From contig JAFGFE010000031.1 of the NCBI GenBank assembly GCA_016931225.1, positions 72,746 to 136,745 on the forward strand: 64,000 bases of DNA. Direction: 5' to 3'. Source of the stretch: Candidatus Zymogenaceae bacterium (GTDB taxonomy: Bacteria; Desulfobacterota; Zymogenia; Zymogenales; Zymogenaceae). The notes beneath the pieces were generated by a model, which did no database searches, was not told where the DNA came from, and worked only from the letters and a program-made list of their open reading frames with translations. The first letter of the stretch is position 1. Each line of letters starts with the position of its first letter. This document shows positions 7,581 through 50,460 of this stretch, piece by piece. Made by a program: the position numbers and the translations under genes.

Positions 7581-7611
7581 TCCCGCCTCTCGGTAAAAAG
7601 CGGAGGTTGTG

Positions 7612-8025: not shown

Positions 8026-8055
8026 CGACGCAGTCCAGCCTCCTCTTCCCATGCG

Positions 8056-13218: not shown

Positions 13219-15123
13219 TTAAAGAAACTCCACCAACCCCAGCTCGTTGATATGCGTATCCGTTGGATATGCGGTCTCGACACTCCACCCCATGAGCCGG
13301 TAGTAATGATCCCGATACCGATAAAATTTCTCGGGATCAATAGCCAGTGTACCCTCAAAGGGACCTTCTACCATATTCTCGGTGTATTTATCGGGAAGGC
13401 AGTCATCCTCTTTTGAAAAACCTTCACGGAAATTGTATATGCGCGAAAGCACAATGCTCCGATCACCCGCCCTCAGAAGCTCATGTATGGTCACTTCCCA
13501 GCCGGTGATCGACTTAATCATATCCAGCATGGTATCCACCGACATCGGGCCGCGCGGCGCAAAACCGAAAAAACACCCCCCGATGACATCGAGCATCCGG
13601 GCATACCTGCTGATAATTACGTAATTTTTTGCCTTTTGCTCCGAGAGATCAAGCGCATCAACGGCCACCGTCAACCCCAGTTTTCTCGCTTCACCGAAGC
13701 TCCAGGTATCATCGACGGTAAAGAACGAATCGTGAGGCGCAACCAGATGATCCGCACCGATATCTGACACCACATATCCCAGTCCAACCCCGGTTTTCGT
13801 CCGGATGTCGTGCATGGGTACTTCCTGTCCCTTGATGGTGATGGTATATTTTTCCGATCCCTTCCCGATTTTCTTCGCCATCCGCGCCTGCCCCTCCGCA
13901 AGGAGGTCCCCGATCCCATCGCGGTGCGCCGTCATTTCGATCAGTTTCAGCAGCATCTCACCGTCCCCGAAGGAGAGCTCCATGCCGCCGGTATCCTTGT
14001 CGGTCAGGATTTCCTCTTCATAGCACTTAATCGCAAAAGAGATTGCCATTCCCAGGGAGATGGAATCTATACCGAAGTGGTTTGCGAGCTCGTTCGCCTT
14101 GGCGACGACAGCCAGGTCGTTGATGCCGACGTTCGAGCCCAGTGCGGCGATGGTTTCGTATTCCGGCCCGCCGTACTCCGAATCGACACTGATATCCCCC
14201 CTGGTCACCTCTATGACCCGCTTACAGCGAATCGGACATGCGAAGCACCCTTTTCTGTCTTTGAGGATTTCCTCATTGTACTTGTTGCAGAAGAGATTTT
14301 CGCCTCCTTCAAGGATCCCCCTGTCCCAGTTGTTGGTGGGCAATGCCCCCCCCGCCATCATGGCGTTGACGCCGATGGTCGTGCCGTATTCGAACAGAGA
14401 ATTGCCGATGGGATTGTCCTTGAAGGTTTGTGCGAACTCCTTTGCGATGTTCTTCAGTGCTTTCGGATCGGCAAGCGGGAGTTTTTTTGAACCCTTTACC
14501 GCCACCGCCTTCAGGTTCTTGCTCCCCATGACCGCCCCGAGGCCGTTCCTTCCGTTGAAATGGCCCAGGTCGTTTCCGAGATTGGCGTATCGAACAAGGT
14601 TCTCGCCCGCCTGTCCGATTATCAGTACCCTGGCGCGCTGTTCGCCCACTTCCTCCCTGATGGCCTCCTGTGCCGGCTTTGCGCCTGTTCCCCAGATGGA
14701 ATCCGCCGGCCTGATCTCCACGGCCGTGTCGGTTATCCAGAGATACACCGGGCTCTTGGATTTTCCCTCGACGATCAGGGCGTCGTATCCGGCGAACTTC
14801 AGCTCAGGGCCCCAGAATCCGCCGGCCTCGGAAGCGGCAAGGCCGCCGGTCAGAGGCGATTTTGCAACCGCGGTAAATCGGGGAATCGCCGGACCGGGCG
14901 CGCCGGTTACGGCGCCGTTCGCCAGAATAAGGAGATTCTCCTCAGACAGCGGATCGATATTCGGAGCGGTCTCCTTCAGGAGGAAGAAAAGCCCCAGTGA
15001 TCGTCCCCCCAGGTATGTCCGCATGAAGCCGTCATCCAGCTCTTCAACCCGATGAGAGCCTTCGGTCAGATTTACCCTCAGAATTCTATTCCAATACCCG
15101 CCGCGGGTTGTTTCTTCCGCCAT
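13219..15123 (-). CDS. aor: Tungsten-containing aldehyde:ferredoxin oxidoreductase
   Basis: Hallmarks of the AOR family include GGRSLG, GCFACPIRC (4Fe-4S Cys), EYGGPEYETIAALG, DGIGDLLAEG and DHLVAPHD. GGAGG SD present. Confidence 0.9.
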   Translation of the reverse strand: MAEETTRGGYWNRILRVNLTEGSHRVEELDDGFMRTYLGGRSLGLFFLLKETAPNIDPLSEENLLILANGAVTGAPGPAIPRFTAVAKSPLTGGLAASEAGGFWGPELKFAGYDALIVEGKSKSPVYLWITDTAVEIRPADSIWGTGAKPAQEAIREEVGEQRARVLIIGQAGENLVRYANLGNDLGHFNGRNGLGAVMGSKNLKAVAVKGSKKLPLADPKALKNIAKEFAQTFKDNPIGNSLFEYGTTIGVNAMMAGGALPTNNWDRGILEGGENLFCNKYNEEILKDRKGCFACPIRCKRVIEVTRGDISVDSEYGGPEYETIAALGSNVGINDLAVVAKANELANHFGIDSISLGMAISFAIKCYEEEILTDKDTGGMELSFGDGEMLLKLIEMTAHRDGIGDLLAEGQARMAKKIGKGSEKYTITIKGQEVPMHDIRTKTGVGLGYVVSDIGADHLVAPHDSFFTVDDTWSFGEARKLGLTVAVDALDLSEQKAKNYVIISRYARMLDVIGGCFFGFAPRGPMSVDTMLDMIKSITGWEVTIHELLRAGDRSIVLSRIYNFREGFSKEDDCLPDKYTENMVEGPFEGTLAIDPEKFYRYRDHYYRLMGWSVETAYPTDTHINELGLVEFL

Positions 15124-15126
15124 CCG

Positions 15127-15357
15127 TTAACCTCCTCCAAAGATCGGATATATATCAACGATATCATCGTCAAACAGGCGAAGATCCCTCCTCTCTTTCC
15201 CGGAGATCGGCCTGTCATTGACCAGTACTATTCCTATTTCGTCCTTTTTTATACGAAGTCTTTCAATGGCATTGATAAAGCTGTCGGCTTCGACATAAAT
15301 CTCCTCCCTCCCCTCGAAGTGATGTCTCAAGCCGACGGCAAGTCTGATCGTTACCAT
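15127..15357 (-). CDS. MoaD/ThiS-family ubiquitin-like small protein
   Basis: 76 aa ending in ...IFGGG-stop (C-terminal di-glycine). Its stop lies 3 nt from the aor start. Confidence 0.65.
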   Translation of the reverse strand: MVTIRLAVGLRHHFEGREEIYVEADSFINAIERLRIKKDEIGIVLVNDRPISGKERRDLRLFDDDIVDIYPIFGGG

Positions 15358-15420
15358 ATATACCGGATTACATATTGCAATTGCTGCGAAATGCGCACAA
15401 GGCGTGAACGAGAACTGTTA

Positions 15421-16668
15421 TTACTGTCTCTTGGACTCCAGCGTCTCGATAAACGCCTCAATCCTGGTTTTCGCCTGGGCCTCGGAATATACCCGTTCGT
15501 CGGTCATGTCCGCTTCGATGACGAGCGTGGGTATCCCGGTATCTTCCTGGATCATCCGTGCGATATCGTATTGGCCCAGAGAGTAGGGCTTGCAGGAGCG
15601 GTTTGAGTGAAGCACGAAGCCATCCGCTTTGTAACGGGAAATAAGACCCTTGATCTCTTCCGCCATGATCTCGATATCGATATTGAGGTAGATCTGGGTG
15701 TAACACTCCGCCAGGCTTTCCAGCGGATTATCCGGGTCTATTCGCTGTCTCGCCCAGGCGTTTGTGTAGGTGTCTGCCACCAGGCACGCCCCATAGGATG
15801 AGAACAGCTCCGACAGCGGCCTCAGTTGATACCATATCGGCAGGTTGTCCCACAGCAGTCGATACTTCTCGTTATCGACCGCGGCGATGCCCTCGGCGAC
15901 ACGCTCCTCAAGCTCTGCAAGCAGACCACGGTAGAACTCGTTGTTTTCCTCCGTGCCCCGAAGCGTCACGATGGGTCCCAAAAAGAAAAATGCGTCAAAA
16001 CAGCTAATTGGTGAGGGGCTGTTTTCACACGTCGAAAGCACCTTGTTCCAGAGCCGTACCCCTTCCATGGAAAGTTGTGCGACTTCTCCGAATCTGTCCA
16101 TGTCAAATGGCGTGCCGCATTGCTGCTCCAGAAAATCAACATATTCCTGCATCTGTGCGGTCACATACGCGGCGCTTTGTGTGGTTTTTGTCTGGTGGAT
16201 AAAGGGCGTATCAATCAGAAACATCGGAACGTCGAAAAAGCGGGAGAGCACTTCGTACCATTTTGTAACGGTGCCGCAGATGTTGTTGCATGCAATGAGG
16301 AAGTCGGGCTTGGGCAGTCCCCCGGGAATTGGACTTTGTTTGGTGACGGCGCTGCCGATGTCCCCCCGAAAATACGAGCAGAGATCCCGGGCATACCCCA
16401 TGTCTTCAGCGACCTGGCACATATCGACACTCATCCTCGACGCCCCCAGCATGGCCCCGTGATTCTCCGGATATATCGGGATAACATCCATGGCGTGAAG
16501 CGGCTCCACCGGGCCGCCGCTGGTAATCCATGCGATTTTCTTGGAGCCGTCGGCCTCGGCTATTTTCGCGCCTGTGTAATAATCGGTCATGAGCTGGCGC
16601 ATGGCCTTGGCGGAGCGCATTTTCTTTTTTTCCTTCCCGGAATCGGCACCCTTTTTTTCCTCTGACAC
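15421..16668 (-). CDS. 2-hydroxyacyl-CoA dehydratase family protein, HgdA/LcdA-like subunit
   Basis: Family signatures include DLCSYFRGD, ACNNICGT and HSNRSCKPYS. GTG 16668 lies 5 nt after AAGGAGA. Confidence 0.8.
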   Translation of the reverse strand: MSEEKKGADSGKEKKKMRSAKAMRQLMTDYYTGAKIAEADGSKKIAWITSGGPVEPLHAMDVIPIYPENHGAMLGASRMSVDMCQVAEDMGYARDLCSYFRGDIGSAVTKQSPIPGGLPKPDFLIACNNICGTVTKWYEVLSRFFDVPMFLIDTPFIHQTKTTQSAAYVTAQMQEYVDFLEQQCGTPFDMDRFGEVAQLSMEGVRLWNKVLSTCENSPSPISCFDAFFFLGPIVTLRGTEENNEFYRGLLAELEERVAEGIAAVDNEKYRLLWDNLPIWYQLRPLSELFSSYGACLVADTYTNAWARQRIDPDNPLESLAECYTQIYLNIDIEIMAEEIKGLISRYKADGFVLHSNRSCKPYSLGQYDIARMIQEDTGIPTLVIEADMTDERVYSEAQAKTRIEAFIETLESKRQ

Positions 16669-16726
16669 CGTTCTCTCCTTGAGCTATACGTCAAACAAGT
16701 CGCGTTTTTTATGAAATTATATCACA

Positions 16727-17860
16727 TCATCCCTGGGCGAGCATTTCGATGAACGCCTCGATCCGTGTCCTGATCTGCCCCGGGCTCGGATTATCCATTT
16801 CCATCTCTATCAGCATGTGGGGAAGTCCCTTTTCCTCGACCGCGTTCTTCAGGTGTGGGTAATCAAATGAGTGGGGATCGCAGAACTTGATGAGAAGAAA
16901 GATGACCCCCTTCGCATTCGCATTGTCGATGATGCTCTTAAGATACATTCCCCGGTCAAAATCGAGGCTGTGCTTCGCCGCACACAGGGGTCGTTGAATA
17001 ATGCGGTCGGCCAGGGCTTCGATGGGATCCTTCTTTTTCACATCGACGTTGAGGGAATAATACCGTGAACCGGTACATATATCATCACCCGACACGGAGG
17101 CGCCGGCATTTTCGATACAATCATATATATCGGTGAATACACACATATTCCCGACGACGACCACCCGTATCGGATCGTATGGATCTTCTTTTCCCTCAAG
17201 CTCGGACAGCAACTCCTCTATCAGGCGATTGTGCTCCTGTACCGGCATATACATGGCCGCCTGGACGCAGTCATCGGTGATTTTCGACCCAACGATGCCC
17301 GGGTGTTTTCTCTTGATATCATGAAGGCGATTGAGGTTATCGCGCATTCGGTTATACATTCTGATGCTGTCCCACAGGGAGTCATCCGTGATTTCTCCGT
17401 CGACAAACTCCTCCAGAGACGCACGAAACGCGGAAAGCTCCTCGATGACATAGGTTCGGGCGCTCTCCGTGTGGAGCTTGACCGGCAGCACGATATCCGC
17501 ATGATAAGAGAAGCCCGCGTTTATACGCCAGATGTCCGACAGGCGTTGTATGGAGTCGCAGGTGTGGGGGAACACCGTCCCATCAATGAAACTAAGATCT
17601 CCGGAGAGCGCCGTGTCCAGAGCGGTCCGCACCAGCGAGCATGAATAGCTCTGGAGATGCCTGTCTGCGAATTCCACCTGTTTTTTTCTTCCCATAATGC
17701 GGTACGGCACACAACCCGCAGCATGGATCATCTCTTCCGGTGTGTAGGTACAAAAATACCCGATGATCGGCTTTTGTAACGTATCCTTGAATCGTTTCCC
17801 CGCCGTCACCGGGTCCTCCACGATCCGCCGTATTTCCTGCAACACCTCAGCGGCATCCAT
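16727..17860 (-). CDS. 2-hydroxyacyl-CoA dehydratase family protein, HgdB/LcdB-like subunit
   Basis: GYFCTYTPEEMIHAAGCVP, FPHTCDS, LIKFCDPHSFDY and the terminal RTRIEAFIEML, as in BcrC/BadD/HgdB-family proteins. Confidence 0.8.
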   Translation of the reverse strand: MDAAEVLQEIRRIVEDPVTAGKRFKDTLQKPIIGYFCTYTPEEMIHAAGCVPYRIMGRKKQVEFADRHLQSYSCSLVRTALDTALSGDLSFIDGTVFPHTCDSIQRLSDIWRINAGFSYHADIVLPVKLHTESARTYVIEELSAFRASLEEFVDGEITDDSLWDSIRMYNRMRDNLNRLHDIKRKHPGIVGSKITDDCVQAAMYMPVQEHNRLIEELLSELEGKEDPYDPIRVVVVGNMCVFTDIYDCIENAGASVSGDDICTGSRYYSLNVDVKKKDPIEALADRIIQRPLCAAKHSLDFDRGMYLKSIIDNANAKGVIFLLIKFCDPHSFDYPHLKNAVEEKGLPHMLIEMEMDNPSPGQIRTRIEAFIEMLAQG

Positions 17861-17912
17861 TCAGCACCCCTTGTGAATCAACAGATATTAGGCATACATA
17901 ATATTTTATATG

Positions 17913-18833
17913 TCAGTTCAGCGTTCTCAATTTGATTCTTCCGAACTCGTCGCTTCCCACCTGAAAATGGGCACCGCCCGTTTCCTCAGACAGGATACGA
18001 AGAATCTCCGGAGATTCCTTCTTTCCGATGTAGATGGAGTGTACCGCGATATTATCCCGTTTTGCAAGCTCTATCTCCCGGGCGATTTCCCGGTCTCCCT
18101 CCGTCGGTCGGCCGTCGGTGATGAACACAACGTGCTTGATCTTGTCATACACGATGTTGAACTCCCGGATGACATCCAGCAGCGGAAGCTGATAGTTTGT
18201 AAATCCACTGCAGAGACAGCGGGACGCCATCTCGCCGATCCTGTTATACGATCGGGTGAAAAACGATTGATCCTTGAGATATTTTGTAGACTGATGGTTG
18301 AACTCTATGTAACCCAGGCGCATCCTGCGGCGCCTGGTCATGCGGATGAGGCCCAGAATCAGCATGGACGACCACTGCGCCCGTGAGCCGGTCATGGATG
18401 AGCTGATGTCCCTGATGATCGCCAGCGCCCCGCCCTTGATCTTTTTCGATCGCATCATGGCCCTGGGAAGCTTCGGATTGAGCATATCCAGCCAGATGGT
18501 CGATTCCACCGGATCGAGGTCGTCGAATTGGGAAAAATCCTCAAGATTCGTCCACGACCTGGGAGAGCCGCCGTAATCACGCATGAGTTCTTCGGTTTTT
18601 TGAATGATGTTTCCCTCAATGACCTTGAGGATGGGACGAACGTCCTTGAGAGTCTCCCGGTTTACTTCATCCTCGTCACGGACCGGCGCCTCCTCACCCC
18701 GCTTTTCCCTGGAGGGGAGGAGTTCCTTTACATTGAAGGATTCTTCGGGAAAACTGTCGAAATCCTTGTCGGAGATTTCGGCCGGTTCGGTGTTGCCCTC
18801 TTTTGTCTCTTCTGGGCGAAACTCCTCTGTCAA
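17913..18833 (-). CDS. von Willebrand factor A (VWA) domain protein with an acidic N-terminal region
   Basis: MIDAS motif DISSSMTG with a later ITDGRPTEGD. The N-terminal ~80 aa are E/D-rich. The TTG start overlaps the moxR stop (TTGA). Confidence 0.75.
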   Translation of the reverse strand: MTEEFRPEETKEGNTEPAEISDKDFDSFPEESFNVKELLPSREKRGEEAPVRDEDEVNRETLKDVRPILKVIEGNIIQKTEELMRDYGGSPRSWTNLEDFSQFDDLDPVESTIWLDMLNPKLPRAMMRSKKIKGGALAIIRDISSSMTGSRAQWSSMLILGLIRMTRRRRMRLGYIEFNHQSTKYLKDQSFFTRSYNRIGEMASRCLCSGFTNYQLPLLDVIREFNIVYDKIKHVVFITDGRPTEGDREIAREIELAKRDNIAVHSIYIGKKESPEILRILSEETGGAHFQVGSDEFGRIKLRTLN

Positions 18834-19807
18834 TTCCTCATGTTCTGGAAGCTCAGCTTTTTTTTTTCAATGATGTCAGAGAGGATCTCTTCCATCCGTT
18901 GATGCACATCCTCGGGGACCCGAAATGTGGTCATGTATTTGAGCACAATGAGGTCCGAGGGGATAACCTCATTTCTCCCCTCGATAATCGCCTTGGACTT
19001 GAGCACGTTCACCGCCTTGACGAGAAACGTTCGATCGGTCAGAAGCGAATTGGATTCATTCAGGTGAAACTCGTCCACGAGCCGATTCAAAAAGGCCATC
19101 AATCTCCTCTTCACGTCGTCAGGAACGTGAATCTTGAGCAGATAGTCGATGGGCCGATCGAACGTGTCGGTGTGGTATCCTTCGACGGAGTCCTTATCAT
19201 AGATGTGATCGATATAGTAATTCATCACATCCATGGCCTCGTCCCAGCTCGATTGGGTAATCAATCCGCCGGTCCTGAGCTGAATGGCGAACCGATCCAG
19301 GTTCGCAAGATCCAAAGGCTCGTTGTAATAATCGTCCTGGGTTGGATTGCTGGTGGCGATCGCAGTAATCAGGGGCAGGCTGATGCCCTTGTATTCCCGC
19401 TCGTTCAGGAGCCGAAGCAGGATATTCAGGGCTTCACCGGGCGCCCGGGTGATATCATCCAGAACCGCGATTTGTGTGGTCAGGATGCCGCCGGGAACGA
19501 GCTTTTGCCGTATCAGCTCACCGTCCCCCGAATTGCCGTCGGATCCCTTTTCCTTCTCACGGGTGATGATGTAGTCCCCGATGAGCTCGGAGAGCTTTGT
19601 GTCCCGGTGAAACTGATAGAAATAGAAACTCAGGTCCGCCGCCTTTGCCGTCAGCTCTGCGAGCATGGTCTTGGCGGTTCCCGGAGATCCTTCTATATAC
19701 ACATGCTCCCTGGCAATCAGTGCAAGGAGGATCCCCTCCTTTATATCTTCGTGACCGATAACATATCGATCCAGTACGTCTTTGATCTGTGCTGCAGTTT
19801 TGAGCAT
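18830..19807 (-). CDS. MoxR-family AAA+ ATPase
   Basis: Walker A GSPGTAKT and a Walker-B region AVLDDITRAPGEALNILLRLLNEREY. The family normally has DE and this protein has DD. Start is ATG 19807 or TTG 19819. Confidence 0.8.
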   Translation of the reverse strand: MLKTAAQIKDVLDRYVIGHEDIKEGILLALIAREHVYIEGSPGTAKTMLAELTAKAADLSFYFYQFHRDTKLSELIGDYIITREKEKGSDGNSGDGELIRQKLVPGGILTTQIAVLDDITRAPGEALNILLRLLNEREYKGISLPLITAIATSNPTQDDYYNEPLDLANLDRFAIQLRTGGLITQSSWDEAMDVMNYYIDHIYDKDSVEGYHTDTFDRPIDYLLKIHVPDDVKRRLMAFLNRLVDEFHLNESNSLLTDRTFLVKAVNVLKSKAIIEGRNEVIPSDLIVLKYMTTFRVPEDVHQRMEEILSDIIEKKKLSFQNMRN

Positions 19808-19872
19808 TTCAGAAACCAACTCCTCAGCGTCAGTAGAGTAACCCGATCACCACTTCAATTGATCGAATTTTT

Positions 19873-19901
19873 ATTATAACAAGTATCCATCGCCAGCGCA
19901 A
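19873..19901 (-). promoter_or_regulatory. Candidate internal promoter in front of moxR
   Basis: The minus strand reads TTGCGC-N17-TATAAT immediately downstream of the ald stop. Confidence 0.45.
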
Positions 19902-19909
19902 GTGAATTT

Positions 19910-21007: not shown

Positions 21008-21059
21008 GATACTCCTCCTGTGTGTGGGATATTTAAGATCTGGTTAAAAAACGAATGTG

Positions 21060-22412: not shown

Positions 22413-22492
22413 ACGCATACCTCACAATTCCCGCCCGGGCGGTGTCCCGCCCGGGCGTTTTTTGTGTATCTATCGTCTCTCTCTTTTATCGC

Positions 22493-23275: not shown

Positions 23276-23296
23276 ATCGCCTCCTTGTTTCTGAGA

Positions 23297-24310
23297 TTAT
23301 ATCTCGTCTTCCCAGTCCTCGTCTTCCTCGAACTCCTTGCCCATAACCTCACGGACCGTCTCGATGACGCCGTCGGTATCGAGCTTGAAATGATTGTAGA
23401 GGTCTTCCGGATAGCCGACGATGGAGTACTCGTCCGGTATGCCCACCCTCTTGAATGCGCAGCCCTTACCGGACTCGACGATGACCTCGCTGACGGCGCT
23501 GCCGAGGCCGCCGATGATGTTGTGATCCTCGAAGGTCACGATACGGCGGGTCTCCTCCACGGCCTTCATGATGATATCCCGGTCGATGGGCTTGATGGTG
23601 TGCATATCGATGACCCGTACCGACAACCCGTCCTCTTTCTCCAGCACTTCCGCGGCGTCCACGGCCGCGTATACCGACGTGCCGCAGGCGATGACGGTGA
23701 TGTCGCTGCCGGGATGCATCTCTATGCCCTTACCGATCTCGAAGGCGTAATTGGCATCCTTGTGCACCCAGGGCTCGAATCCCCGCCCGATCCTGATGTA
23801 CACCGGACCCTTCCAGTCCACACACGCCTCCACCGCCTTTGAGGTCTCAATGCCGTCGGCGGGGACGATCACCGTCATATTCGCGAACGAGCGCATCACG
23901 GACAAATCCTCGGTACAATGGTGGGTCGTTCCCGCCTGGCCGAACGATACGCCGGAATGGGTGGCGATGATCTTGCAGTTGAGGTTCTGGTAGCAGATAT
24001 CGGTTCTGACCTGCTCACCGGCCCTCAGGGATGCGAACACCGCAAAGGTCGAGATGAAGGGGGTAAATCCGGCCAGCGCCAATCCCGCGCCGATGCCGAA
24101 CAGGTTCTGCTCCGCGATGCCGACGTTTATGAATCGATCCGGGAATCGTGTCTCGAATTTTCCTATCTTGGTGGACTTGGCCAGGTCCGCCGTCAGGGCG
24201 ACGATATCCTCACGCTCTTCGCCCAGATGTACCAGTGTTTCACCATATATCTCAGCCGCCGTCATATGATCGGCGTCCTGCAGACTCCACGTAACACTTC
24301 CTTCCGCCAT
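23297..24310 (-). CDS. Transketolase, C-terminal (pyrimidine-binding) subunit
   Basis: Split-TK B subunit pattern with INVGIAEQN, FISTFAVF, THHCTEDL and VYIRIGR. AGGAGG SD present. Confidence 0.85.
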   Translation of the reverse strand: MAEGSVTWSLQDADHMTAAEIYGETLVHLGEEREDIVALTADLAKSTKIGKFETRFPDRFINVGIAEQNLFGIGAGLALAGFTPFISTFAVFASLRAGEQVRTDICYQNLNCKIIATHSGVSFGQAGTTHHCTEDLSVMRSFANMTVIVPADGIETSKAVEACVDWKGPVYIRIGRGFEPWVHKDANYAFEIGKGIEMHPGSDITVIACGTSVYAAVDAAEVLEKEDGLSVRVIDMHTIKPIDRDIIMKAVEETRRIVTFEDHNIIGGLGSAVSEVIVESGKGCAFKRVGIPDEYSIVGYPEDLYNHFKLDTDGVIETVREVMGKEFEEDEDWEDEI

Positions 24311-24322
24311 GGTTTCCTCCTG

Positions 24323-25165
24323 TTATTTACCCGCATACATGCGGTCGATGGATTCCAGGGCCTTTCTGGTCATTTCACCGTCAAGCCCGCCGTAATGCCA
24401 TTCTTTGGCGCCTTCCATGTAATCAACGCCCTTGCCCTTTACGGTCTGGGCGATGATGATAAACGGACCGCCCGAGAATGCCTGGGCCTCTTCAATGGCA
24501 TCGCAGATATCATTGAAGTTATGTCCGTCGATAATTCTGACCTTCCAGCCGAACGCCTCCCACTTCTTGTCCAGGGGGCTGACGTTCATGATCTCGTTCA
24601 ATGGACCGTCGATACACAGTTTGTTGTTATCGATTATCCCGATGAGATTATCGAGCTTGTAATGGGCGGCGGACATTGCAGCCTCCCAGATCGATCCCTC
24701 GTGCTGTTCCCCGTCTCCCATAATACAGTAGGTCAGCCATTTTTTCCCGGAAAACTTCGCACCAAGGGCCAGGCCGACGGCGATGGAGAGACCGTGTCCC
24801 AATGAGCCTGTTGACGCATCCACTCCGGGCACCTTGTTTTTATCCAGGTGCATGCCGAAGCTGGAGCCTGTGTGATTGAACGTCTGGAGCAGTTCTTTTT
24901 TGAAATATCCCTTGTCCGCCAGGACCGGAGCATATCCCACACCGCCGTGCCCCTTTGAGAGGACGAGTCTATCCCGATCCGCCTTTTCCGGGTTGCTTGG
25001 ATCGATATTGAGATATTTGTAATAGAGCGCTACCAACAGGTCAAGCTGTGACAGTGCTCCGCCGGCGTGACCGCCGCCTGACCAGGCCACCGTCTGGATG
25101 ACGTCTTTCCTGAGCTGGTGGGCCTTTTCGGTCAGAGCCTTCAATTCACTTTCTGACAGGGCCAT
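24323..25165 (-). CDS. Transketolase, N-terminal (ThDP-binding) subunit
   Basis: GGHAGGALS, SKGHG and the ThDP motif GDGEQHEGSIWEA...IIDNN. GGAGG SD present. Confidence 0.85.
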   Translation of the reverse strand: MALSESELKALTEKAHQLRKDVIQTVAWSGGGHAGGALSQLDLLVALYYKYLNIDPSNPEKADRDRLVLSKGHGGVGYAPVLADKGYFKKELLQTFNHTGSSFGMHLDKNKVPGVDASTGSLGHGLSIAVGLALGAKFSGKKWLTYCIMGDGEQHEGSIWEAAMSAAHYKLDNLIGIIDNNKLCIDGPLNEIMNVSPLDKKWEAFGWKVRIIDGHNFNDICDAIEEAQAFSGGPFIIIAQTVKGKGVDYMEGAKEWHYGGLDGEMTRKALESIDRMYAGK

Positions 25166-25263
25166 TATGTGCCTCCTCTTACAATGGGTGACGTATATAT
25201 TTTATTTTCTTGAGTTTTTCGATTTAAACATACCATTATTATCAATATTTTTCCAATGTAATT

Positions 25264-26685
25264 CTAATCCACCGCCTTTTTTTCATCGCTCTCCTCAGGG
25301 CCTGGACGTCGTCTGCGCCGGGGCGCCCTCTGGGCCGCAAGCCGCTCGTATTTGGCCCTGATCTTCGGAAGCAGGAAAAAGACATATCCCGCATTGATGA
25401 TGAGAACGCCCACGATGAAGCCGAGAGCGATGCGCTGATCAACGACGTCTTCGGGCTGCATGGGGCCGAAGAGGATGAATCCCGCGACGATCCCATATAT
25501 CAGAATAACAATGACCGGTATTGTAATTCCTCCCTTTATCTTGAAATCCCGCTCGGCGTCCCGATTCTTAAACCGAAGCCGAATGACGGACATCGCCATG
25601 ACCATGTAGATCATGCACTCCGTTGCGGCAATGATCAGTATCATGGAAAGAATGAAATGGGTCGCAAATCCGTACACGGTCACCAGGACACAATACACCG
25701 TCACCACCACCATCGCCACCCAGGGAGTCGCGTGTTTCGGGTGGAGCCTGGCGATGAACCTCGGCAGCGACCAGTCCCGGGCCATGGCATAGATGAAACG
25801 GGATGACGTGAGGATCCCGGCGTTGAGAGACGTCAGCGACGCCAGAAGCGCCATACCGATCATGAAGTAGAGGCCGAAGCCCCCCAGCAGGGTCTCGCCG
25901 TATAGGACATGGGGAATGGGAAGTCCCTCCGGATCGAGGACCCAGGCCAGGGTCTCGGCAGGAAGCACGGCCGTCATCGCCGTCGAAAACAGGGCGTAGA
26001 CGATGGCGAGGATCCCCAGGGCGATCATCATTCCTTTGGGCACCAGCTTCACGTCGGTGACCTCTTCTGATATGGTCACGACCCATTCAAACGCGATAAA
26101 GCACGAGATGCCGATGGCCACCGCCTGGATAAAGCCATCGAGGCTCCCCACTTGGATGGGATTCTCTATATGAAAACCGGTTGATGAAAGCCCATATATG
26201 GAAATGAGGATCAGGCCGATAAACATGGTGTAGGCGATGATATCCTGGGTTGTCCCGGCGATGCGGATCCCCCGGTAGTTGAGAAACCAGAGCACCGCAC
26301 CGAAGGCGACGGCCCAGATGACCGGATGCACGAAGGTGACGCCCTGGGACAGGGCCTGGGAGAGTATATATACCTCGGCGCCCACGATGGAGAGCTGTCC
26401 CATTACATAGACACCGGCGATGATGATCGCCGTTTTCTCCCCGAAGGCCTTTTCGATGTATATCTTGATGCCCGCCGAGGTGGGATACATGGAGTTGAGT
26501 TCACAAAAACAAGAGCCGGCCATGACCGCCATGACGCCGGCGGTGAGAATTGCTATCCATGCCGAATGTCCGGTCAGGTAGCTTGCAAGCTCGATAAACG
26601 ATACGTAGGTGACCGTCGCCAGGGCCATGCCCGCGCCGGTGGATATCACCGTGCGTAGTCCCACAGCCCGCCTGAGTTGAGTCAT
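25264..26685 (-). CDS. APC-superfamily amino acid/amine permease (paralog 2)
   Basis: Collinear with 21060-22412 (LRTVISTGAGMALATV...FCELNSMYPTSAG). Start set to ATG 26685, which is 7 nt after GAGGAG. Confidence 0.8.
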   Translation of the reverse strand: MTQLRRAVGLRTVISTGAGMALATVTYVSFIELASYLTGHSAWIAILTAGVMAVMAGSCFCELNSMYPTSAGIKIYIEKAFGEKTAIIIAGVYVMGQLSIVGAEVYILSQALSQGVTFVHPVIWAVAFGAVLWFLNYRGIRIAGTTQDIIAYTMFIGLILISIYGLSSTGFHIENPIQVGSLDGFIQAVAIGISCFIAFEWVVTISEEVTDVKLVPKGMMIALGILAIVYALFSTAMTAVLPAETLAWVLDPEGLPIPHVLYGETLLGGFGLYFMIGMALLASLTSLNAGILTSSRFIYAMARDWSLPRFIARLHPKHATPWVAMVVVTVYCVLVTVYGFATHFILSMILIIAATECMIYMVMAMSVIRLRFKNRDAERDFKIKGGITIPVIVILIYGIVAGFILFGPMQPEDVVDQRIALGFIVGVLIINAGYVFFLLPKIRAKYERLAAQRAPRRRRRPGPEESDEKKAVD

Positions 26686-26710
26686 AGATTTTCTCCTCAA
26701 TCAATTCGAA

Positions 26711-28000
26711 TCATTTTTTCAGTTTATCTTCCTGAGCCTGAATCTCCTTGAGAGACGCATCAAAGGCCTTCATCACAAAATCCACCTCGTCCGGGGTGAT
26801 GACCAGGGTCGGCATAATCCGTATGATACGGGGGTTGTTGAAGGTGTATATAGAGATGACGCCGTTCTGCCTGAGCTGATACGCCATCCGGGGGCCGATG
26901 CTGTCTTCCGGGAACTCCATGCCCAGCATCAAGCCCTTCCCTCGAACGTCCAGCACCAGCTCCGGGTACTTCTCCTTTAATTTTGAAAGCCCCTTCATGA
27001 ACCGGGCGCCCATCTTTTCCGCATGACCGGGAAGATCGTTCTCTTCGATGTACTCTATCGCGGCCAGCGCGACAAGACAGGCAAGAGATGTACCGCCGAA
27101 CGAGTTGATGATGATAAAGGGATGGGCCATGAGAAAATCGCTGATCTCCTCGGTGAAGATCGCGCATGATATGGGATAAAGCCCTCCCGACAGGGATTTT
27201 GCGAACACCATGATGTCCGGCGTCACGCCGCTGTGCTCGGCGCAGAACATCTTTCCGGTACGGCCGAAGCCGGTTTGAACCTCGTCGAAGATAAGGAGCA
27301 TCTCGTTCTCGTCGCAGATCGCCCGAAGCTCCCTGAGGTAGTCGTCGTCGGCGGGGACGATGCCCCCCTCCCCCTGAATCGGCTCTAGCATGATCGCCGC
27401 GCTCTCCTCCGTGACGGCTTCCTTTACCGCCTTAATATCGTTGATGGGCACATGCTTGTACCCCGGCGCCAGGGGCGCGAAGGGTTTTCGATACACCTCC
27501 CTGCCGGTTGCGGGAAGGGCGAAGCCGGTCACCCCGTGGTAGCCGTTATCCATGCAGATGACTTCCGGTCGATCGGTGTGCCCCCGGGCCAGCTTGATGG
27601 CCACCTCGATGGCCTCCCCGCCGCCACAGCAAAAGAGGGAATACTTCAGATCGCCCGGTGTGATCTCCGCCAGCTTCTTCGCCAACAGGCCCCGCTCCCT
27701 GACGATGGATATCCACCCGCCCATGTCGTAGGTATCCAGGGCCTTCTTCAGCGCGTCGACCACATCCGGGTTGTGACGGCCCACATTGAATATTCCCGCG
27801 CCGGTGACGCAGTCGATGTATTTTTCTCCGGAGATATCCCAGACGCTGGCGCCCTCCCTCTTTCCCTCGATGATGTCGAGACTGGCGTTCTTGAACATCC
27901 TCAGCGCGAAGGGGTTGACGTACTCCCTGTAATTATGCTCGGTTTCTTTCCGTATTTGTTCCGCATCCGTTTGAGAAAGGATTTCATCTATGATGGACAT
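26711..28000 (-). CDS. Class-III (omega) aminotransferase, YgjG/putrescine-aminotransferase-like (copy 1)
   Basis: EYVNP...GKREGASVWD..GEKYIDC..GAGIFNVGRHNP, LKYSLFCCGGGEAIE, EPIQGEGG and [14 protein letters not shown]...AKSL (PLP Lys). ATG 28000 lies 6 nt after GGAGG. Confidence 0.85.
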   Translation of the reverse strand: MSIIDEILSQTDAEQIRKETEHNYREYVNPFALRMFKNASLDIIEGKREGASVWDISGEKYIDCVTGAGIFNVGRHNPDVVDALKKALDTYDMGGWISIVRERGLLAKKLAEITPGDLKYSLFCCGGGEAIEVAIKLARGHTDRPEVICMDNGYHGVTGFALPATGREVYRKPFAPLAPGYKHVPINDIKAVKEAVTEESAAIMLEPIQGEGGIVPADDDYLRELRAICDENEMLLIFDEVQTGFGRTGKMFCAEHSGVTPDIMVFAKSLSGGLYPISCAIFTEEISDFLMAHPFIIINSFGGTSLACLVALAAIEYIEENDLPGHAEKMGARFMKGLSKLKEKYPELVLDVRGKGLMLGMEFPEDSIGPRMAYQLRQNGVISIYTFNNPRIIRIMPTLVITPDEVDFVMKAFDASLKEIQAQEDKLKK

Positions 28001-28001
28001 A

Positions 28002-28361
28002 TCATACCTCCGGCCAGATGACGGCGGTAATGGCGTCGATGCGCATGACATCTTCCTGGGTGCCCTTCACCTTGATCTCTCCCCTGAGGTATTTCTGTGT
28101 CGGGTTCAGGTCGCCCCAGAACATGTCGCACATGGTCTCGCTGTCTGTCTCGACGACGACGTCGGGTGTGCCGTTGGTGCCGGCCTCGTTTTTGATGATC
28201 TCCCCCTCGATAACCTCCATTGTGAAAGAATCACCGGTATCTGTCGCCACATAATGCAACAGTTTCGTCCAGTCCCGCTGCATGCGTCTGAGCCGTTTGT
28301 TGGTGTTGCATTGCTCGGTAAAATCCGTCAAGGCCTCCATAATTTCTTCAGATGTCGCCAT
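28002..28361 (-). CDS. SCP2 (sterol-carrier-protein-2) domain protein
   Basis: 119 aa ending in MFWGDLNPTQKYLRGEIKVKGTQEDVMRI, the typical SCP2 C-terminal signature. AAGGAG SD present. Confidence 0.7.
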   Translation of the reverse strand: MATSEEIMEALTDFTEQCNTNKRLRRMQRDWTKLLHYVATDTGDSFTMEVIEGEIIKNEAGTNGTPDVVVETDSETMCDMFWGDLNPTQKYLRGEIKVKGTQEDVMRIDAITAVIWPEV

Positions 28362-28410
28362 AGATACTTCTCCTTCTCATGTATATCACTATTTAAAATT
28401 CGTTTTTCGA

Positions 28411-29691
28411 TCAATACTTCTCAATACCGCCTTGCTTCATAATCCCGGCCATCGATGTATCGAGGGCCTCGAGCACGAAATCCACCTCCTCGGGTGTGAT
28501 GACCAAAGACGGCATCAGGCGCATGACGGACGGCTCGTTGCCGGTATAGATGGCCATGACGCCGTTTTGCGCAAGCTGATAGCTCATCCGCGGACCGATG
28601 CTGTCGTTGGTGTACTGAAGCCCCATCATCAGGCCCTTTCTCCGCACCTCCAGGAAAAGCTCCGGGTAGCGGGTCAAGAGATCGTCAAAACCCTTTTGAA
28701 ACCGCTCGCCCATTTTCGCCGCATGCTCCGGAATCTTGTTTTCGATCAGCCAGTCGATCACCGCCAATCCCACGATGCATCCAAGGTCGGACCCGCCGAA
28801 GGTCGAGAGGTGGGTGAATGGATGGGTCATCACGAAATCGCCCAGCTCCTCGCGATAGATGGTGGCGGAGATCGGGTACAGGGCGCCGCCAAGGGATTTT
28901 GCGACGGTCATGATGTCGGGGGTGACGCCGAAATGGTCGACGCAGAACATCTTGCCTGTGCGGCCGAACCCGGTCTGGATTTCATCGGCGATAAACAGCA
29001 CCTCGTTGTCGTCGCACAGCTTCCTGACCCCTTCCACGTACTCGGCGGTGGCGGGGTAAATGCCGCCCTCTCCCTGTACCAGCTCCAGCATGATCGCCGC
29101 CGTGTCCTCCGTAATCGCCTCCTCCATGGCCGCCACATCGTTGAACGGAACCTGGACATAGCCGGGCACCATTGGATAGAACGGCTTCTTGTATTCCTCC
29201 CTGCCGATGGCCGCCAGAGAAAAACCGGTGTGTCCGTGATACGCCTTGATGGTGGAGATGATTTCAGACTTCATGGTGAAGCCCCGGGCCAGCTTGATGG
29301 CGAAGTCGTTTGCCTCGCCCCCCCCGCATCCGTACATGGTGTACTGGAGGTCTCCCGGCGTGATCTCGGCGAACTTCTTGGCCAGGTCGGCCTTCGGCTT
29401 GCTGCACATTAAAAAAACGCCCAGATCGTATTCATCGAGGGCGTCCTTGAGGACCTGTATGATCTCCGGATTTCTCCTGCCGACGTTGAAAGATCCGGCC
29501 GAAGTAATACAGTCGATATATTTCGTGCCGGTGATATCCCATACTGTCGCCCCTTCCCGCCTCCCCTCGATGATATCCAATCCCGAATTCGTGAGAACTC
29601 TCGCCTTCTGCGGATTGACGTACTCCGAAAAATCAGCCAACACCTGTTTTTTTACGCTCTCCGCATCCGCCTTACTGAGTGTTTTTGCCAT
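28411..29691 (-). CDS. Class-III (omega) aminotransferase, YgjG-like (copy 2)
   Basis: Collinear paralog of 26711-28000 (EYVNP...[46 protein letters not shown]...AKSL). Start set to ATG 29691. Confidence 0.85.
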
Positions 29692-29817
29692 GAGTCCCCC
29701 TTTTTCATATGATAGTAAATATTCATGCAATATACATATATGTCGCCTGTTTCATCCTGATTTCATCAAAACGTTCGGACCGATGGATTCGATATTCGTT
29801 ACCGGCATCATCCGCCG

Positions 29818-30471
29818 CTACTTCTTATCTTCAAAGACCGAAATCCCCAACAGCAATATCTCCAGTTGGTTTAAAACCAGCTCGTCGAGATCAAATTCAA
29901 ACCCCCTGGCGCGAAGATATCCCATCATGTCCAAAAGCAGGATTCCTTCAAGGCCCGCCCAGAGGTTGAAGCTCGCCTTGAGGCTGTCGAACGTATCCGA
30001 GAATTCCCCCGACTCGATCGCCTCGGCGACCACATCATGAATGATCGAAATGGCCTGGGCGGTTAATTCCTTGAGACGATCGGACAGCTCTTCCGATTGT
30101 CCCCGACGGGTAAAACCGAGATCGTGGAACGTCAGCATCTCGAAATACTCGGTGTAGTCGGTATAGAATGAATAGTATTCCCTGCAGATGGCCCTCAGGC
30201 GATCTTTGGGCGTCCCCGGTGTCTCCGCGGCCTTTTTAATCAATCCGATAACGACGAGAAAAGCCTCCTCGCATACTTTTGCGTATATTTCGTCTTTCCC
30301 CGAAAAATAGACGTATATGGCGCCGGTGGAGAGCTCCGCCTCCAGGGCGATATCCCGCATGGTCGCGCCGAGATATCCCTTTTGCACAAAGAGGGTGCGC
30401 GCGGCTTTCAGTATTTGTTCGATGCGTTCCTGTTTTTCTGTTTCTATGCGTTTCGCAATAACGTCTTGCAT
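29818..30471 (-). CDS. TetR/AcrR-family transcriptional regulator
   Basis: N-terminal HTH ILKAARTLFVQKGYLGATMRDIALEAELSTGAIYVYF. First gene of the one-directional cluster. Confidence 0.85.
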   Translation of the reverse strand: MQDVIAKRIETEKQERIEQILKAARTLFVQKGYLGATMRDIALEAELSTGAIYVYFSGKDEIYAKVCEEAFLVVIGLIKKAAETPGTPKDRLRAICREYYSFYTDYTEYFEMLTFHDLGFTRRGQSEELSDRLKELTAQAISIIHDVVAEAIESGEFSDTFDSLKASFNLWAGLEGILLLDMMGYLRARGFEFDLDELVLNQLEILLLGISVFEDKK

Positions 30472-30506
30472 GTGGTAGGACCCTTGCGTGGTACCGTGTC
30501 TGGAAT

Positions 30507-30545
30507 GAACAATGTTATGCTACTGAACATCGTTCTTTCTGTCAA
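30507..30545 (-). promoter_or_regulatory. Candidate tetR promoter with two GAACA-N-TGTTC-like operator boxes
   Basis: The minus strand has TTGACA (30540-30545), a 17-nt spacer and TAGCAT (30517-30522). The imperfect 11-bp palindromes are GAACATCGTTC (30525-30535, in the spacer) and GAACAATGTTA (30507-30517, abutting -10). Confidence 0.5.
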
Positions 30546-50447: not shown

Positions 50448-50460
50448 ATTTCCACATATT

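Follow-up and report, generated by a model that had tools for sequence, protein, structure and literature searches.

The row of co-directional genes at 10404-30471 of the window (the whole 64,000-nucleotide stretch of Candidatus Zymogenaceae DNA analysed here) is a mosaic of separately portable modules. The conserved core among them, an atypical split transketolase with SCP2-type lipid carriers and usually an aminotransferase, points to an undescribed route for the breakdown of fatty amino-alcohols rather than to a diamine pathway. Our reading, offered tentatively, is that the modules were fused in this one lineage into a row that breaks down, under anoxic conditions, a lipophilic amino-alcohol resembling a sphingoid base or 2-amino-1,3-diol.

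Gene Inventory of the Row

The row comprises 19 genes, all on the minus strand. Neighbours are -4 to 126 nt apart, and most starts are preceded by SD-like motifs. An earlier note on this DNA had described short gaps, SDs and a list of minus-strand genes; all of those genes are present in the order it gave, and every family call holds. The principal features are as follows.

30517-30545, minus: sigma-70-like promoter candidate upstream of tetR (TTGACA-17-TAGCAT, 10/12, consensus match only)
29818-30471, minus: TetR-family regulator, tetR (PF00440, 57.6 bits)
28411-29691, minus: AT1, class-III aminotransferase, YgjG/PigE-like, 426 aa (PF00202, 305 bits)
28002-28361, minus: small SCP2 lipid-binding protein, 119 aa (PF02036, 29 bits)
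26711-28000, minus: AT2, class-III aminotransferase, YgjG/PigE-like, 429 aa (PF00202, 324 bits)
25264-26700, minus: APC-family permease 1 (PF13520 and PF00324; NCBIfam matches generic only)
24323-25165, minus: TK-N, split transketolase N-terminal (ThDP-binding) subunit (PF00456)
23297-24310, minus: TK-C, split transketolase C-terminal subunit, non-canonical (GQAG replaces GEDG; Ala at the Arg358 equivalent)
22493-23275, minus: tandem-SCP2 protein (SCPL), 260 aa (without a Pfam match; AF2 model)
21060-22418, minus: APC-family permease 2 (PF13520 and PF00324)
19910-21007, minus: alanine dehydrogenase, Ald (TIGR00518, 496 bits, passing the cut-off of 391.85)
18830-19819, minus: MoxR-type AAA+ ATPase (PF07728 and PF20030; Walker A GSPGTAKT)
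17913-18833, minus: VWA protein with MIDAS motif (PF00092; DISSS)
16727-17860, minus: HGD-D family protein, beta-like subunit (PF06050, 284 bits)
15421-16668, minus: HGD-D family protein, alpha-like subunit (PF06050, 286 bits)
15127-15357, minus: MoaD/ThiS-like beta-grasp protein, 76 aa, C-terminal GGG
13219-15123, minus: tungsten-type aldehyde:ferredoxin oxidoreductase, single-subunit AOR type (PF02730 and PF01314)
12118-13206, minus: TPR/transglutaminase-like protein, after AOR
11311-12096, minus: metallophosphoesterase, downstream of AOR in relatives too

A TauE gene after the metallophosphoesterase ends the row, and a hairpin terminator follows Sua5 at 30650-30625. The co-directional genes, short gaps and one promoter-like site upstream of tetR, with the order kept in relatives, speak for a joint pathway. 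Among NCBIfam models the TetR regulator comes nearest to two fatty-acid regulators, FadR and FasR, in each case far under cut-off. The AT2 start was moved 17 codons downstream of that of the longest ORF, following its own database entry (P0232), so that an apparent 50-nt overlap with the SCP2 gene vanishes. The MoaD-like ortholog in one relative (L001) matches PF14451 and PF02597. The ORFs scanned, from which several smaller ORFs of the window were left out, encode no NAD(P)-dependent aldehyde dehydrogenase, as the earlier note had said, and AOR is the only aldehyde oxidiser of the row. The row has no CoA ligase, CoA transferase or HgdC-type activator.

The Conserved Core and Its Distribution

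The row divides into six modules.

tetR-AT-SCP2-AT-permease
split transketolase and tandem-SCP2 protein
permease-Ald
MoxR-VWA
HGD-D pair
MoaD-AOR

The complete row recurs only in MAGs of Ca. Zymogenaceae, a family of uncultured anaerobes, at six complete and two partial species-level MAG loci. The gene order is kept in the six complete relatives despite indels such as V4R insertions (four extra V4R genes in L001 and L007) and loss of the TPR gene. The synteny extends to the flank genes, the metallophosphoesterase and the housekeeping gene Sua5; conservation within Zymogenaceae may therefore stem from shared ancestry and not from selection. At about 60 loci in more than 10 other phyla, including those of the cultured Desulfatibacillum alkenivorans and Desulfosarcina widdelii, TK-N, TK-C and the tandem-SCP2 protein are all that is conserved of the row. 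At 60 of 66 non-Zymogenaceae loci the tandem-SCP2 gene comes immediately after TK-C, and TK-N was found at 55 of 60 core loci. SCPL is the marker of this core. Outside Zymogenaceae the core is usually accompanied by a FumI-type aminotransferase and, in Desulfobacterales, also by Ald. Both types of aminotransferase are found with both types of ThDP enzyme.

FumI-like aminotransferase with split transketolase: many phyla
YgjG-like pair and SCP2 with split transketolase: the window
YgjG-like pair and SCP2 with fused E1 alpha/beta ThDP enzyme: L091
FumI-like aminotransferase with fused E1 alpha/beta: Agrobacterium and Shinella plasmids

The row holds three SCP2-fold units, the 119-aa protein and the two halves of SCPL. 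The AF2 model of SCPL (pLDDT 94) has two SCP2-like halves, forming a tandem SCP2 fold, and Foldseek returned only lipid- or alkyl-binding SCP2 domains for it.

The transketolase of the window belongs to a non-canonical subfamily. TK-N carries the GDG-x-N ThDP motif at residue 150, and its closest PDB entry is 6yak. The split transketolase of C. hydrogenoformans (6yaj/6yak, PMC7661550; 271-273 bits per subunit) has the same fold, alpha2beta2 split architecture, ThDP motif, catalytic Glu and His residues. The subfamily differs from it and from canonical transketolases in that GEDG has become GxAG in all 75 linked TK-C subunits, with the Asp equivalent to E. coli D469 replaced in every one, and that Ala occupies the Arg358-equivalent position in most of them. 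Its genetic ties are also different, being to tandem-SCP2 proteins and aminotransferases and not to pentose-phosphate genes, and the SCPL-linked enzymes separate by score from canonical split transketolases. In yeast transketolase, D477, the counterpart of D469, reads the hydroxyl adjoining the cleaved bond. Substitutions of D469 in the E. coli enzyme give activity on non-polar aldehydes (PMC5073344). The linked enzymes retain the ThDP motif, catalytic Glu and His residues along with the equivalents of S385, H461 and R520. Canonical transketolases bind phosphate through these last three, so the substrate may be anionic and not a lipid. By our stereochemical reasoning a further point against a sphingoid base is that the natural D-erythro forms would lead to a 3R ketol, and classical transketolases favour 3S.

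The altered pocket bears also on the direction of the reaction. If the row were biosynthetic, transketolase would add a C2 ketol to a fatty aldehyde, and aminotransferase with Ald-supplied alanine would make a sphingoid-like 2-amino-1,3-diol lipid; it would then be nature's version of the synthetic transketolase-transaminase cascades. Those engineered cascades share with the window the enzyme pair and, in the D469 variants, the key active-site position, but they are man-made systems in which hydroxypyruvate is the donor and the reaction runs towards the amino-diol (PMC5073344). Both reactions are reversible, loss of the D469-equivalent Asp fits the pocket changes of variants evolved for non-polar aldehyde acceptors, SCP2 carriers are present, and many core loci are without a permease. 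In anisomycin biosynthesis, too, an aminotransferase works beside a TK-like enzyme. A ThDP enzyme of this kind is named for that pathway in PMC11387542. We nevertheless consider biosynthesis very unlikely: the TetR regulators, Ald, permeases and AOR look catabolic, the FumI family is known from catabolism, and acyl-reducing or lipid-assembly genes do not recur near the core.

The Aminotransferases and the Suggested Diamine Route

AT1 and AT2 are paralogues, 57% identical, both with the PLP lysine. The EYVNP...YIDC motif and the YgjG-like character that the earlier note ascribed to both are confirmed, with ArgD and GSA enzymes more distant from both than YgjG and PigE. The closest PDB entry to AT2 is 4uox, the E. 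coli putrescine aminotransferase (E 6e-97), with 4ppm, which we take to be PigE, also matching. The best NCBIfam model for the pair, PRK11522, gives 358 bits for AT1 and 411 for AT2, well under the equivalog cut-off of 612. The E. coli YgjG (PatA) putrescine pathway is thus the best sequence match, down to the common N-terminal motif, but its partners differ. YgjG works with an NAD-dependent aminobutyraldehyde dehydrogenase and with 2-oxoglutarate as acceptor, whereas the aminotransferases of the window sit with an SCP2 protein, transketolase, Ald and AOR. The 119-aa SCP2 gene always adjoins the aminotransferase gene or genes in L091-L093, being between the two in L091 and L092 and before the single one in L093. 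A lipid-binding companion is odd for putrescine or GABA.

The earlier note had inferred that a diamine becomes an amino-aldehyde, an omega-amino acid, a semialdehyde and finally an acid. Putrescine, cadaverine, GABA or beta-alanine would be deaminated twice by AT1 and AT2, with both aldehyde oxidations by AOR and pyruvate recycled by Ald, while the transketolase, SCP2 and HGD-D genes would be bystanders. The putrescine aminotransferase match, the presence of two APC permeases, Ald and AOR with no NAD(P)-dependent aldehyde dehydrogenase, and the class-III aminotransferases found beside AOR at 4 of 78 metagenome loci elsewhere speak for it. It is nonetheless distinctly unlikely. The scores are far under the cut-off, AT1 and AT2 belong to a single subtype and no GabT-type enzyme is there to carry out the second step, an SCP2 protein always accompanies the module, and in L091 the same module is coupled with a different C-C-cleaving ThDP enzyme. 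Above all, the only genes conserved across phyla, transketolase and tandem-SCP2, are left without a role. Because these and the SCP2 gene stay unexplained, a putrescine-type route is unsupported. One property of the pair counts against the lipophilic amino-alcohol as well: YgjG/PigE-like enzymes usually act on terminal -CH2-NH2 groups, and such deamination gives an aldehyde, which is a transketolase acceptor and not a ketol donor.

Alanine Dehydrogenase, Permeases and the FumI-Type Link

A class-III aminotransferase lies within 5 kb of the core at 36 of 52 loci. Among solved structures this core aminotransferase is nearest to 6hbs, the "aminopentol aminotransferase" FumI (E 3.8e-98); the family after it reaches only 1e-46. 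FumI belongs to the pathway by which Sphingopyxis sp. MTA144 degrades fumonisin. Its substrate is a sphinganine analogue, a long-chain 2-amino-3-ol, which it deaminates at C2 with pyruvate as the preferred acceptor and without using 2-oxoglutarate (PMC3136697). That system differs in being aerobic, and the descriptions consulted name no transketolase, SCP2, Ald or AOR for it; no FumI-like aminotransferase is encoded in the window itself. Ald adjoins the transketolase/aminotransferase core at five Desulfobacterales loci, as in the D. alkenivorans operon TetR-Ald-SCPL'-AT-TKN-TKC-SCPL. With an aminotransferase there from the family of the pyruvate-preferring FumI, this makes the alanine/pyruvate couple of the earlier note plausible, and pyruvate would be the amino acceptor of AT1 and AT2. 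The logic is that of the Tpa-Ald system, where a class-III taurine:pyruvate aminotransferase uses pyruvate and Ald regenerates it; the aminotransferase clade and substrate differ, and Tpa-Ald has no ThDP cleavage step.

APC permeases more typically carry soluble amines, which counts against a lipophilic substrate, and those of the row weakly resemble ethanolamine permease (TIGR00908, 57 and 77 bits). In aerobes, FumI-like aminotransferases neighbour sugar kinases and class II aldolases, which suggests hydrophilic aminopolyols as substrates there. These observations, with the phosphate-binding residues kept in the transketolase, would suit small hydrophilic amino-alcohols such as ethanolamine, serinol, aminopropanediol or aminopolyols: the aminotransferase would yield glycolaldehyde, dihydroxyacetone or a ketose, transketolase would pass it into sugar phosphates, and AOR would take overflow aldehyde. 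Such substrates are, to our mind, very unlikely, since they account neither for three SCP2-fold units per cluster, kept across phyla, nor for the V4R insertions or the missing D469-equivalent Asp.

Proposed Route for a Lipophilic Amino-Alcohol

On the preferred reading, the amine would enter through the permeases, and SCP2-type proteins would hold the hydrophobic substrate or its intermediates. AT1 and AT2 would transfer the amino group to pyruvate, and Ald would convert the alanine to pyruvate, NH4+ and NADH. The split transketolase, with the tandem-SCP2 protein, would then cleave the resulting alpha-hydroxy-ketone (a 1,3-dihydroxy-2-ketone), handing its C2 ketol unit over to a sugar phosphate acceptor and setting free an aliphatic aldehyde. 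Finally, the W-type AOR, its cofactor matured by the MoaD-like protein, would oxidise the aldehyde to the acid and reduce ferredoxin. We assign no step to MoxR-VWA or the HGD-D pair. The gene families, modules, conservation pattern and changed transketolase residues are what the sequences show. We infer the lipophilic substrate class from family resemblance; the direction is probably catabolic, and AOR a putative participant.

AOR and the Downstream Modules

The AOR has 1aor as its closest PDB entry (E 2e-125). It resembles this Pyrococcus furiosus enzyme in being a single-subunit AOR-type sequence with the [4Fe-4S] Cys motif (CxxCxxxC, residues 293-300), a type that oxidises a broad range of aldehydes. 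The Aromatoleum AOR operon also has MoaD-like genes, aorD/aorE, but the window has no AorA or AorC subunits (PMC6365974). AOR, MoxR-VWA and HGD-D are tied to the remainder of the row only in this lineage. The "supercluster" of the earlier note is therefore a lineage-specific mosaic and not a conserved unit, and its aminotransferase/Ald/AOR logic stands only in part. MoxR-VWA and an HGD-D pair ahead of AOR were seen at no other AOR locus examined.

It is then to be asked whether the aminotransferase, SCP2, transketolase, SCPL and Ald genes form one pathway and MoxR-VWA, HGD-D and MoaD-AOR are simply unrelated units downstream. Among 78 AOR relatives of at most 50% identity there is not one with MoxR, VWA, HGD-D, transketolase, SCPL or Ald in its neighbourhood, AOR is missing from all 29 fully flanked core loci, the HGD-D pair occurs at 60-64% identity as a stand-alone two-gene unit in other Desulfobacterota, and the Zymogenaceae synteny covers Sua5 and the metallophosphoesterase as well. 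Set against this, the units from Ald to AOR are separated by gaps of only 52-90 nt with no minus-strand terminator-like site between, their order outlasts the indels in relatives, and the pathway would yield an aldehyde for which the row has no other oxidiser. We regard a row without common function as unlikely.

By solved structure and by NCBIfam model alike, the HGD-D pair comes closest to the 2-hydroxyisocaproyl-CoA dehydratase HadBC: 3o3m, its alpha subunit (HadB in NCBIfam naming), for the alpha-like protein, and the HadC model for the beta-like one (225 bits, under the cut-off of 700). The pair differs in scoring far under equivalog cut-offs, and no HadI/HgdC-type activator or CoA transferase is in the row. 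That it is a 2-hydroxyacyl-CoA dehydratase for 2-hydroxy acids is only a guess. The TPR gene is absent in Zymogenaceae relatives at 59-67% AOR identity and present in a near-identical contig (L099).

Organization of the gene row

Every gene named in the earlier note is present, in the order reported there and on the minus strand, as judged from the ORF listing and from Pfam and NCBIfam scans. The row begins, in the order of transcription, with tetR, a class-III aminotransferase (AT1), a 119-aa SCP2 protein, a second class-III aminotransferase (AT2), an APC permease, the two subunits of a split transketolase (TK-N and TK-C) and a 260-aa tandem-SCP2 protein, here called SCPL. It continues with another APC permease, Ald, an AAA+ ATPase of the MoxR type, a VWA protein and two HGD-D family proteins, and ends with a 76-aa beta-grasp protein with a C-terminal GGG, AOR, a TPR protein, a metallophosphoesterase and TauE. 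Intergenic distances in the row range from -4 to 126 nt, with SD-like motifs before most starts. The preceding gene, Sua5, ends in a hairpin terminator, and there are two further elements:

30545-30517, promoter-like site directly upstream of tetR
22432-22457, GC hairpin within the 74 nt that separate the tandem-SCP2 and second permease genes; perfect 11-bp all-GC stem, CGCCCGGGCGG...CCGCCCGGGCG

The hairpin was considered as an internal terminator. The coding (minus) strand has a run of A before it and no run of T after it, and therefore there is no classical terminator at this point; the hairpin may be an RNA-processing or stability element. Inside the cluster there is no Rfam match that would indicate riboswitch control. 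The genes that flank the row seem unrelated to it: one side has Usp, GNAT and SDR, and the other has Sua5, a response regulator, CbiM and NikR.

The aminotransferases and Ald

AT1 and AT2 are paralogs with 57% identity. Both have the class-III fold (PF00202 at 305 and 324 bits) and keep the PLP lysine, in VAKSL and FAKSL, together with the YgjG-type N-terminal EYVNP...YIDC motif. The true start of AT2 is 17 codons downstream of the longest-ORF start. Their best PDB match is 4uox, the E. coli putrescine aminotransferase, and PigE is the other best-matching enzyme. The usual substrates of YgjG/PigE-like aminotransferases are terminal amines. The earlier note had proposed a diamine or omega-amino-compound route built on these enzymes, Ald and AOR. 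That proposal is supported in part. The aminotransferase/Ald couple resembles the Tpa-Ald systems and the aminotransferases resemble YgjG, but YgjG membership does not hold. Against the YgjG/PatA models PRK11522 and TIGR03372, AT1 scores 358 and 306 bits and AT2 scores 411 and 348 bits, so neither reaches the NCBIfam equivalog cut-offs of 612 and 658.65 bits. Any activity on putrescine or cadaverine is putative. Ald scores 496 bits against TIGR00518, where the equivalog cut-off is 391.85, and has both AlaDh domains (PF05222 and PF01262).

A different aminotransferase is found in related loci of other phyla. Its closest solved relative is the aminopentol aminotransferase FumI (6hbs, E 3.8e-98), with GSA aminomutase the next family at 1e-46, and a FumI-like enzyme is found in 41 related loci. 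The window has none; by tblastn, the FumI-like aminotransferase of Desulfatibacillum alkenivorans matches only AT1 and AT2 there, at 21-25% identity. [quoted passage not shown] This preference agrees with the position of Ald next to the core aminotransferase.

A split transketolase without the GEDG aspartate

The nearest characterized relative of the window transketolase is the split transketolase of C. hydrogenoformans. The ThDP motif is kept (GDGEQ...NN at TK-N residue 150, in the GDG-x(25-30)-N pattern), as are the catalytic Glu (GIAEQN in TK-C) and the active-site His (GGGHAGG and EWH, aligned to 6yak). The two halves score 273.7 and 260.1 bits separately against NF004559, whose 488-bit cut-off belongs to a full-length fused-protein model. 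The main departure is in TK-C, where the GEDG of canonical transketolases is replaced by GQAG. This Asp (D469 in E. coli, D477 in yeast) binds the C2-OH of the acceptor and senses the hydroxyl beside the cleaved bond. All 75 of the 75 SCPL-linked TK-C orthologs have GxAG at this place. Among the phosphate-binding residues of the E. coli enzyme, R358 corresponds to Ala in the window sequence and most orthologs and to Arg in some phyla, and TK-C retains the equivalents of S385, H461 and R520. Judged by sequence, the window enzyme is predicted to stand outside the canonical transketolases on account of its missing GEDG Asp. A search of 1.8 billion representatives set this subfamily apart at 425, 383 and 328 bits, with canonical GEDG/GPDG split transketolases appearing from 309 bits; further Asp-less transketolase subfamilies exist in the same search. 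Substitution of D469 is the classical way in which the E. coli enzyme has been opened to non-polar aldehydes (PMC5073344).

SCP2-fold proteins

The 119-aa protein matches PF02036 (SCP2). SCPL has no Pfam match, and its AlphaFold model (pLDDT 94.4) consists of two SCP2-like halves. Foldseek against PDB returns solely SCP2 domains for it, with E down to 1.8e-5 and a target-normalized TM-score up to 0.71. These include the alkylsulfatase C-terminal domain, sterol carrier proteins and UbiJ, which bind lipids or alkyl chains. Hydrophobic-ligand binding by SCPL and the 119-aa protein is putative. The 111 SCPL homologs all come from uncultured or poorly studied anaerobes. Several from Planctomycetota/Phycisphaerae (L015, L019 and L039, also L014 and L020; 50-56% identity) have no transketolase within 10 kb where flanks are available, so the tandem-SCP2 protein can exist outside a transketolase context.

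Conservation of the row and of its core

With SCPL as the marker and one genome scanned per species, 80 loci were recovered and annotated by tblastn with the window proteins. The conservation in relatives that the earlier note looked for is found: the full row, with identical order and flanks, occurs at six complete and two partial Zymogenaceae MAG loci. The complete row is confined to MAGs of Ca. Zymogenaceae (Thermodesulfobacteriota), plus JGI/ENA contigs. Two close relatives (L001 and L007) have four V4R-domain genes inserted, at 5867-7991 and 12360-12902, after the first permease and before Ald; the window has no V4R genes.

The conserved part of the other 73 loci, which are from Desulfobacterales, Hydrogenedentota, Nitrospirota, Planctomycetota, Bacillota, Myxococcota, Spirochaetota, Verrucomicrobiota, Binatia and one Bathyarchaeia MAG, is only TK-N/TK-C/SCPL, which we call the core. 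Of the 66 that have room for TK-C, 60 contain it, and TK-N is present in 55 of 60. A second SCPL paralog (SCPL') and a class-III aminotransferase (36 of 52 loci) usually stand before the core, the aminotransferase having only 21-28% identity to AT1 and AT2. Ald adjoins the core in five Desulfobacterales loci, HGD-D pairs occur in three Bacillota core loci, and AOR occurs in three loci, at a distance and on the opposite strand. The cultured D. alkenivorans DSM 16219 has the operon TetR-Ald-SCPL'-AT-TKN-TKC-SCPL, and Desulfosarcina widdelii PP31 carries the core as well. All-vs-all clustering of ORFs from a crude caller, with many antisense shadow ORFs among them, was used to look for more genes that recur beside the core (for instance for a ligase, an aldehyde dehydrogenase or a ceramidase), and no added family appeared in at least 10 loci. 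On the contig binned as Bathyarchaeia (L034), a FumI-like AT-TKN-TKC-SCPL core has 44-66% identity to the window proteins, its aminotransferase being recognized as FumI-like because it matches that of D. alkenivorans. The finding reflects either an inter-domain transfer or a binning error.

Portable modules and their ThDP partners

The AT1-SCP2-AT2-permease segment is a portable module in itself. It is found alone in a Desulfobacterales MAG (L092), and it is reduced to SCP2-AT beside a ferredoxin and an AMP-binding ligase in another locus (L093). A Desulfatiglandaceae MAG (L091) has an 846-aa fused E1_dh/Transket_pyr/Transketolase_C protein (5643-8183) directly upstream of AT-SCP2-AT-permease. 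On plasmids of Agrobacterium and Shinella (L094, L096), FumI-like aminotransferases likewise adjoin a fused E1 alpha/beta "alpha-ketoacid dehydrogenase", and one on a Novosphingobium plasmid adjoins a class II aldolase and a sugar kinase. Each of the two aminotransferase types (FumI-like, or YgjG-like with SCP2) therefore occurs with each of the two ThDP enzyme types (split transketolase or fused E1). In our view, these pairings are the strongest argument for a coupling between deamination and the ThDP-dependent C-C cleavage of the alpha-hydroxy-ketone so formed.

A possible pathway

These relationships suggest the following scheme. A substrate, which would be a lipophilic amino-alcohol, would be carried by the SCP2-type proteins. 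Its amino group would be passed to pyruvate, as is shown for FumI and supposed for AT1 and AT2, and Ald would recycle the pyruvate. The Asp-less transketolase might then split the ketol, passing the C2 unit to a sugar-phosphate acceptor and freeing an aliphatic aldehyde. In Ca. Zymogenaceae, the position of AOR suggests that it would oxidize this aldehyde with ferredoxin. These organisms are predicted to be fermenters with Rnf and the Wood-Ljungdahl pathway (Zymogenia preprint), and reduced ferredoxin would therefore be useful to them.

A more specific reading is possible, but we think it rather unlikely: that the core (a FumI-like or YgjG-like aminotransferase, the non-canonical split transketolase, tandem-SCP2 proteins and sometimes Ald), which over 10 phyla carry, cultured sulfate reducers among them, performs an undescribed anaerobic degradation of sphingoid bases or long-chain 2-amino-1,3-diols by transamination and transketolase cleavage between C2 and C3, extended by AOR in Ca. 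Zymogenaceae. It would be a phosphorylation-independent alternative to the sphingosine kinase/S1P-lyase route, in which the tungsten AOR of Ca. Zymogenaceae would keep the aldehyde electrons as reduced ferredoxin. The general scheme, with its lipophilic amino-alcohol substrate, has its weak points. The terminal-amine habit of the YgjG/PigE-like enzymes argues against it, the APC permeases suggest soluble substrates, and three phosphate-binding residues are still in the transketolase. Also, the FumI-like contexts of aerobes resemble aminopolyol catabolism, and the Zymogenaceae synteny includes housekeeping genes. A sulfonate substrate (taurine or a sulfo-transketolase), brought to mind by TauE at 10404-11246, was discarded, with no sulfonate-specific gene found and TauE outside the conserved part.

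Transketolase-transaminase pairs are known from engineered cascades and from anisomycin biosynthesis. Literature searches on transketolase with aminotransferase, SCP2 and Ald, on sphingosine degradation with transketolase and on Desulfatibacillum with transketolase found no description of a catabolic aminotransferase/transketolase/SCP2 cluster. The genes of the row go unmentioned in the Zymogenia preprint. In the proposed route, amine catabolism through a pyruvate transaminase would be the known part and the ThDP cleavage step the novel part. If the reading is right, it gives transketolase a new catabolic use, in which a lipid-derived ketol is cleaved instead of a sugar phosphate. A widespread tandem-SCP2 family, and FumI-type aminotransferases outside the mycotoxin degraders, would then have a function, and the reading would suggest a route by which sediment and digester anaerobes recycle sphingoid and other amino-alcohol lipids. 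Since the core operon is in two cultured strains, D. alkenivorans DSM 16219 and D. widdelii PP31, the hypothesis is directly testable. Natural GxAG transketolases would also be of interest to biocatalysis, where D469 variants were engineered for the same purpose.

AOR and its neighbors

AOR (AFOR_N 243 bits, AFOR_C 383 bits) has the [4Fe-4S] Cys motif CxxCxxxC at residues 293-300. It is closest to the P. furiosus AOR (1aor, E 2e-125) and has no AorA or AorC partner; an exact-sequence lookup gave no match. MoaD-like genes beside aor genes are already known (PMC6365974). The enzyme is predicted to be of the tungsten rather than the molybdenum type, with a Moco/Wco riboswitch, a molybdate/tungstate-type ABC transporter and two MoeA genes at 50-58 kb as an indirect sign. 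The riboswitch (RF01055, 64 bits; 50452-50600, plus strand) precedes genes for a PBP_like_2 binding protein, a TOBE-domain ABC ATPase and two MoeA proteins, one of them fused to a PBP_like domain. The whole segment (50459-57790), about 35 kb from AOR, has the look of a locus for tungstate/molybdate uptake and cofactor insertion.

The HGD-D subunits (PF06050 at 284 and 286 bits) have HadBC as their nearest relatives and stay below the equivalog level, at 302 bits against 750 for the HadB model and 225 against 700 for the HadC model. Among the 41 larger ORFs scanned between 326 and 62572, there is no ASKHA-type activator and no CoA transferase or ligase, the sole exception being a CoA_trans gene (42072-43067) that lies 11.6 kb upstream of the row. 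That gene adjoins one for a B12-binding radical SAM protein (together 42072-45205, minus strand). MoxR (PF07728 and PF20030, Walker A GSPGTAKT) and VWA (PF00092, MIDAS motif DISSS) are encoded by genes that overlap by 4 nt.

We considered the HGD-D pair or MoxR-VWA as conserved AOR accessories and rejected both. In other Desulfobacterota, HGD-D pairs at 60-64% identity (L088-L090) are stand-alone two-gene units. MoxR, VWA, HGD-D, transketolase, SCPL or Ald is near AOR in 0 of 78 metagenome AOR relatives at 50% identity or less, and in the same survey the window order around AOR is repeated in only two near-identical contigs. None of the AOR relatives from outside the lineage has either pair, and the 2026 WOR classification paper is silent on neighbors of the MoxR, VWA, dehydratase or aminotransferase kind. 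The stand-alone HGD-D units are repeatedly near a GCV_T-SHMT fusion protein. Of the three loci, two also have a 381-386-aa metallophosphoesterase nearby, and two have a CoA-binding/Succ_CoA_lig protein.

Elsewhere in the window, there are two tandem alpha/beta hydrolases (Hydrolase_4, PF12146; 35976-37786, minus strand) 5.5 kb upstream of the cluster, and an ILVD/EDD-type dehydratase adjoins a 629-aa TPP_enzyme_N/M/C protein (1482-5296, minus strand).
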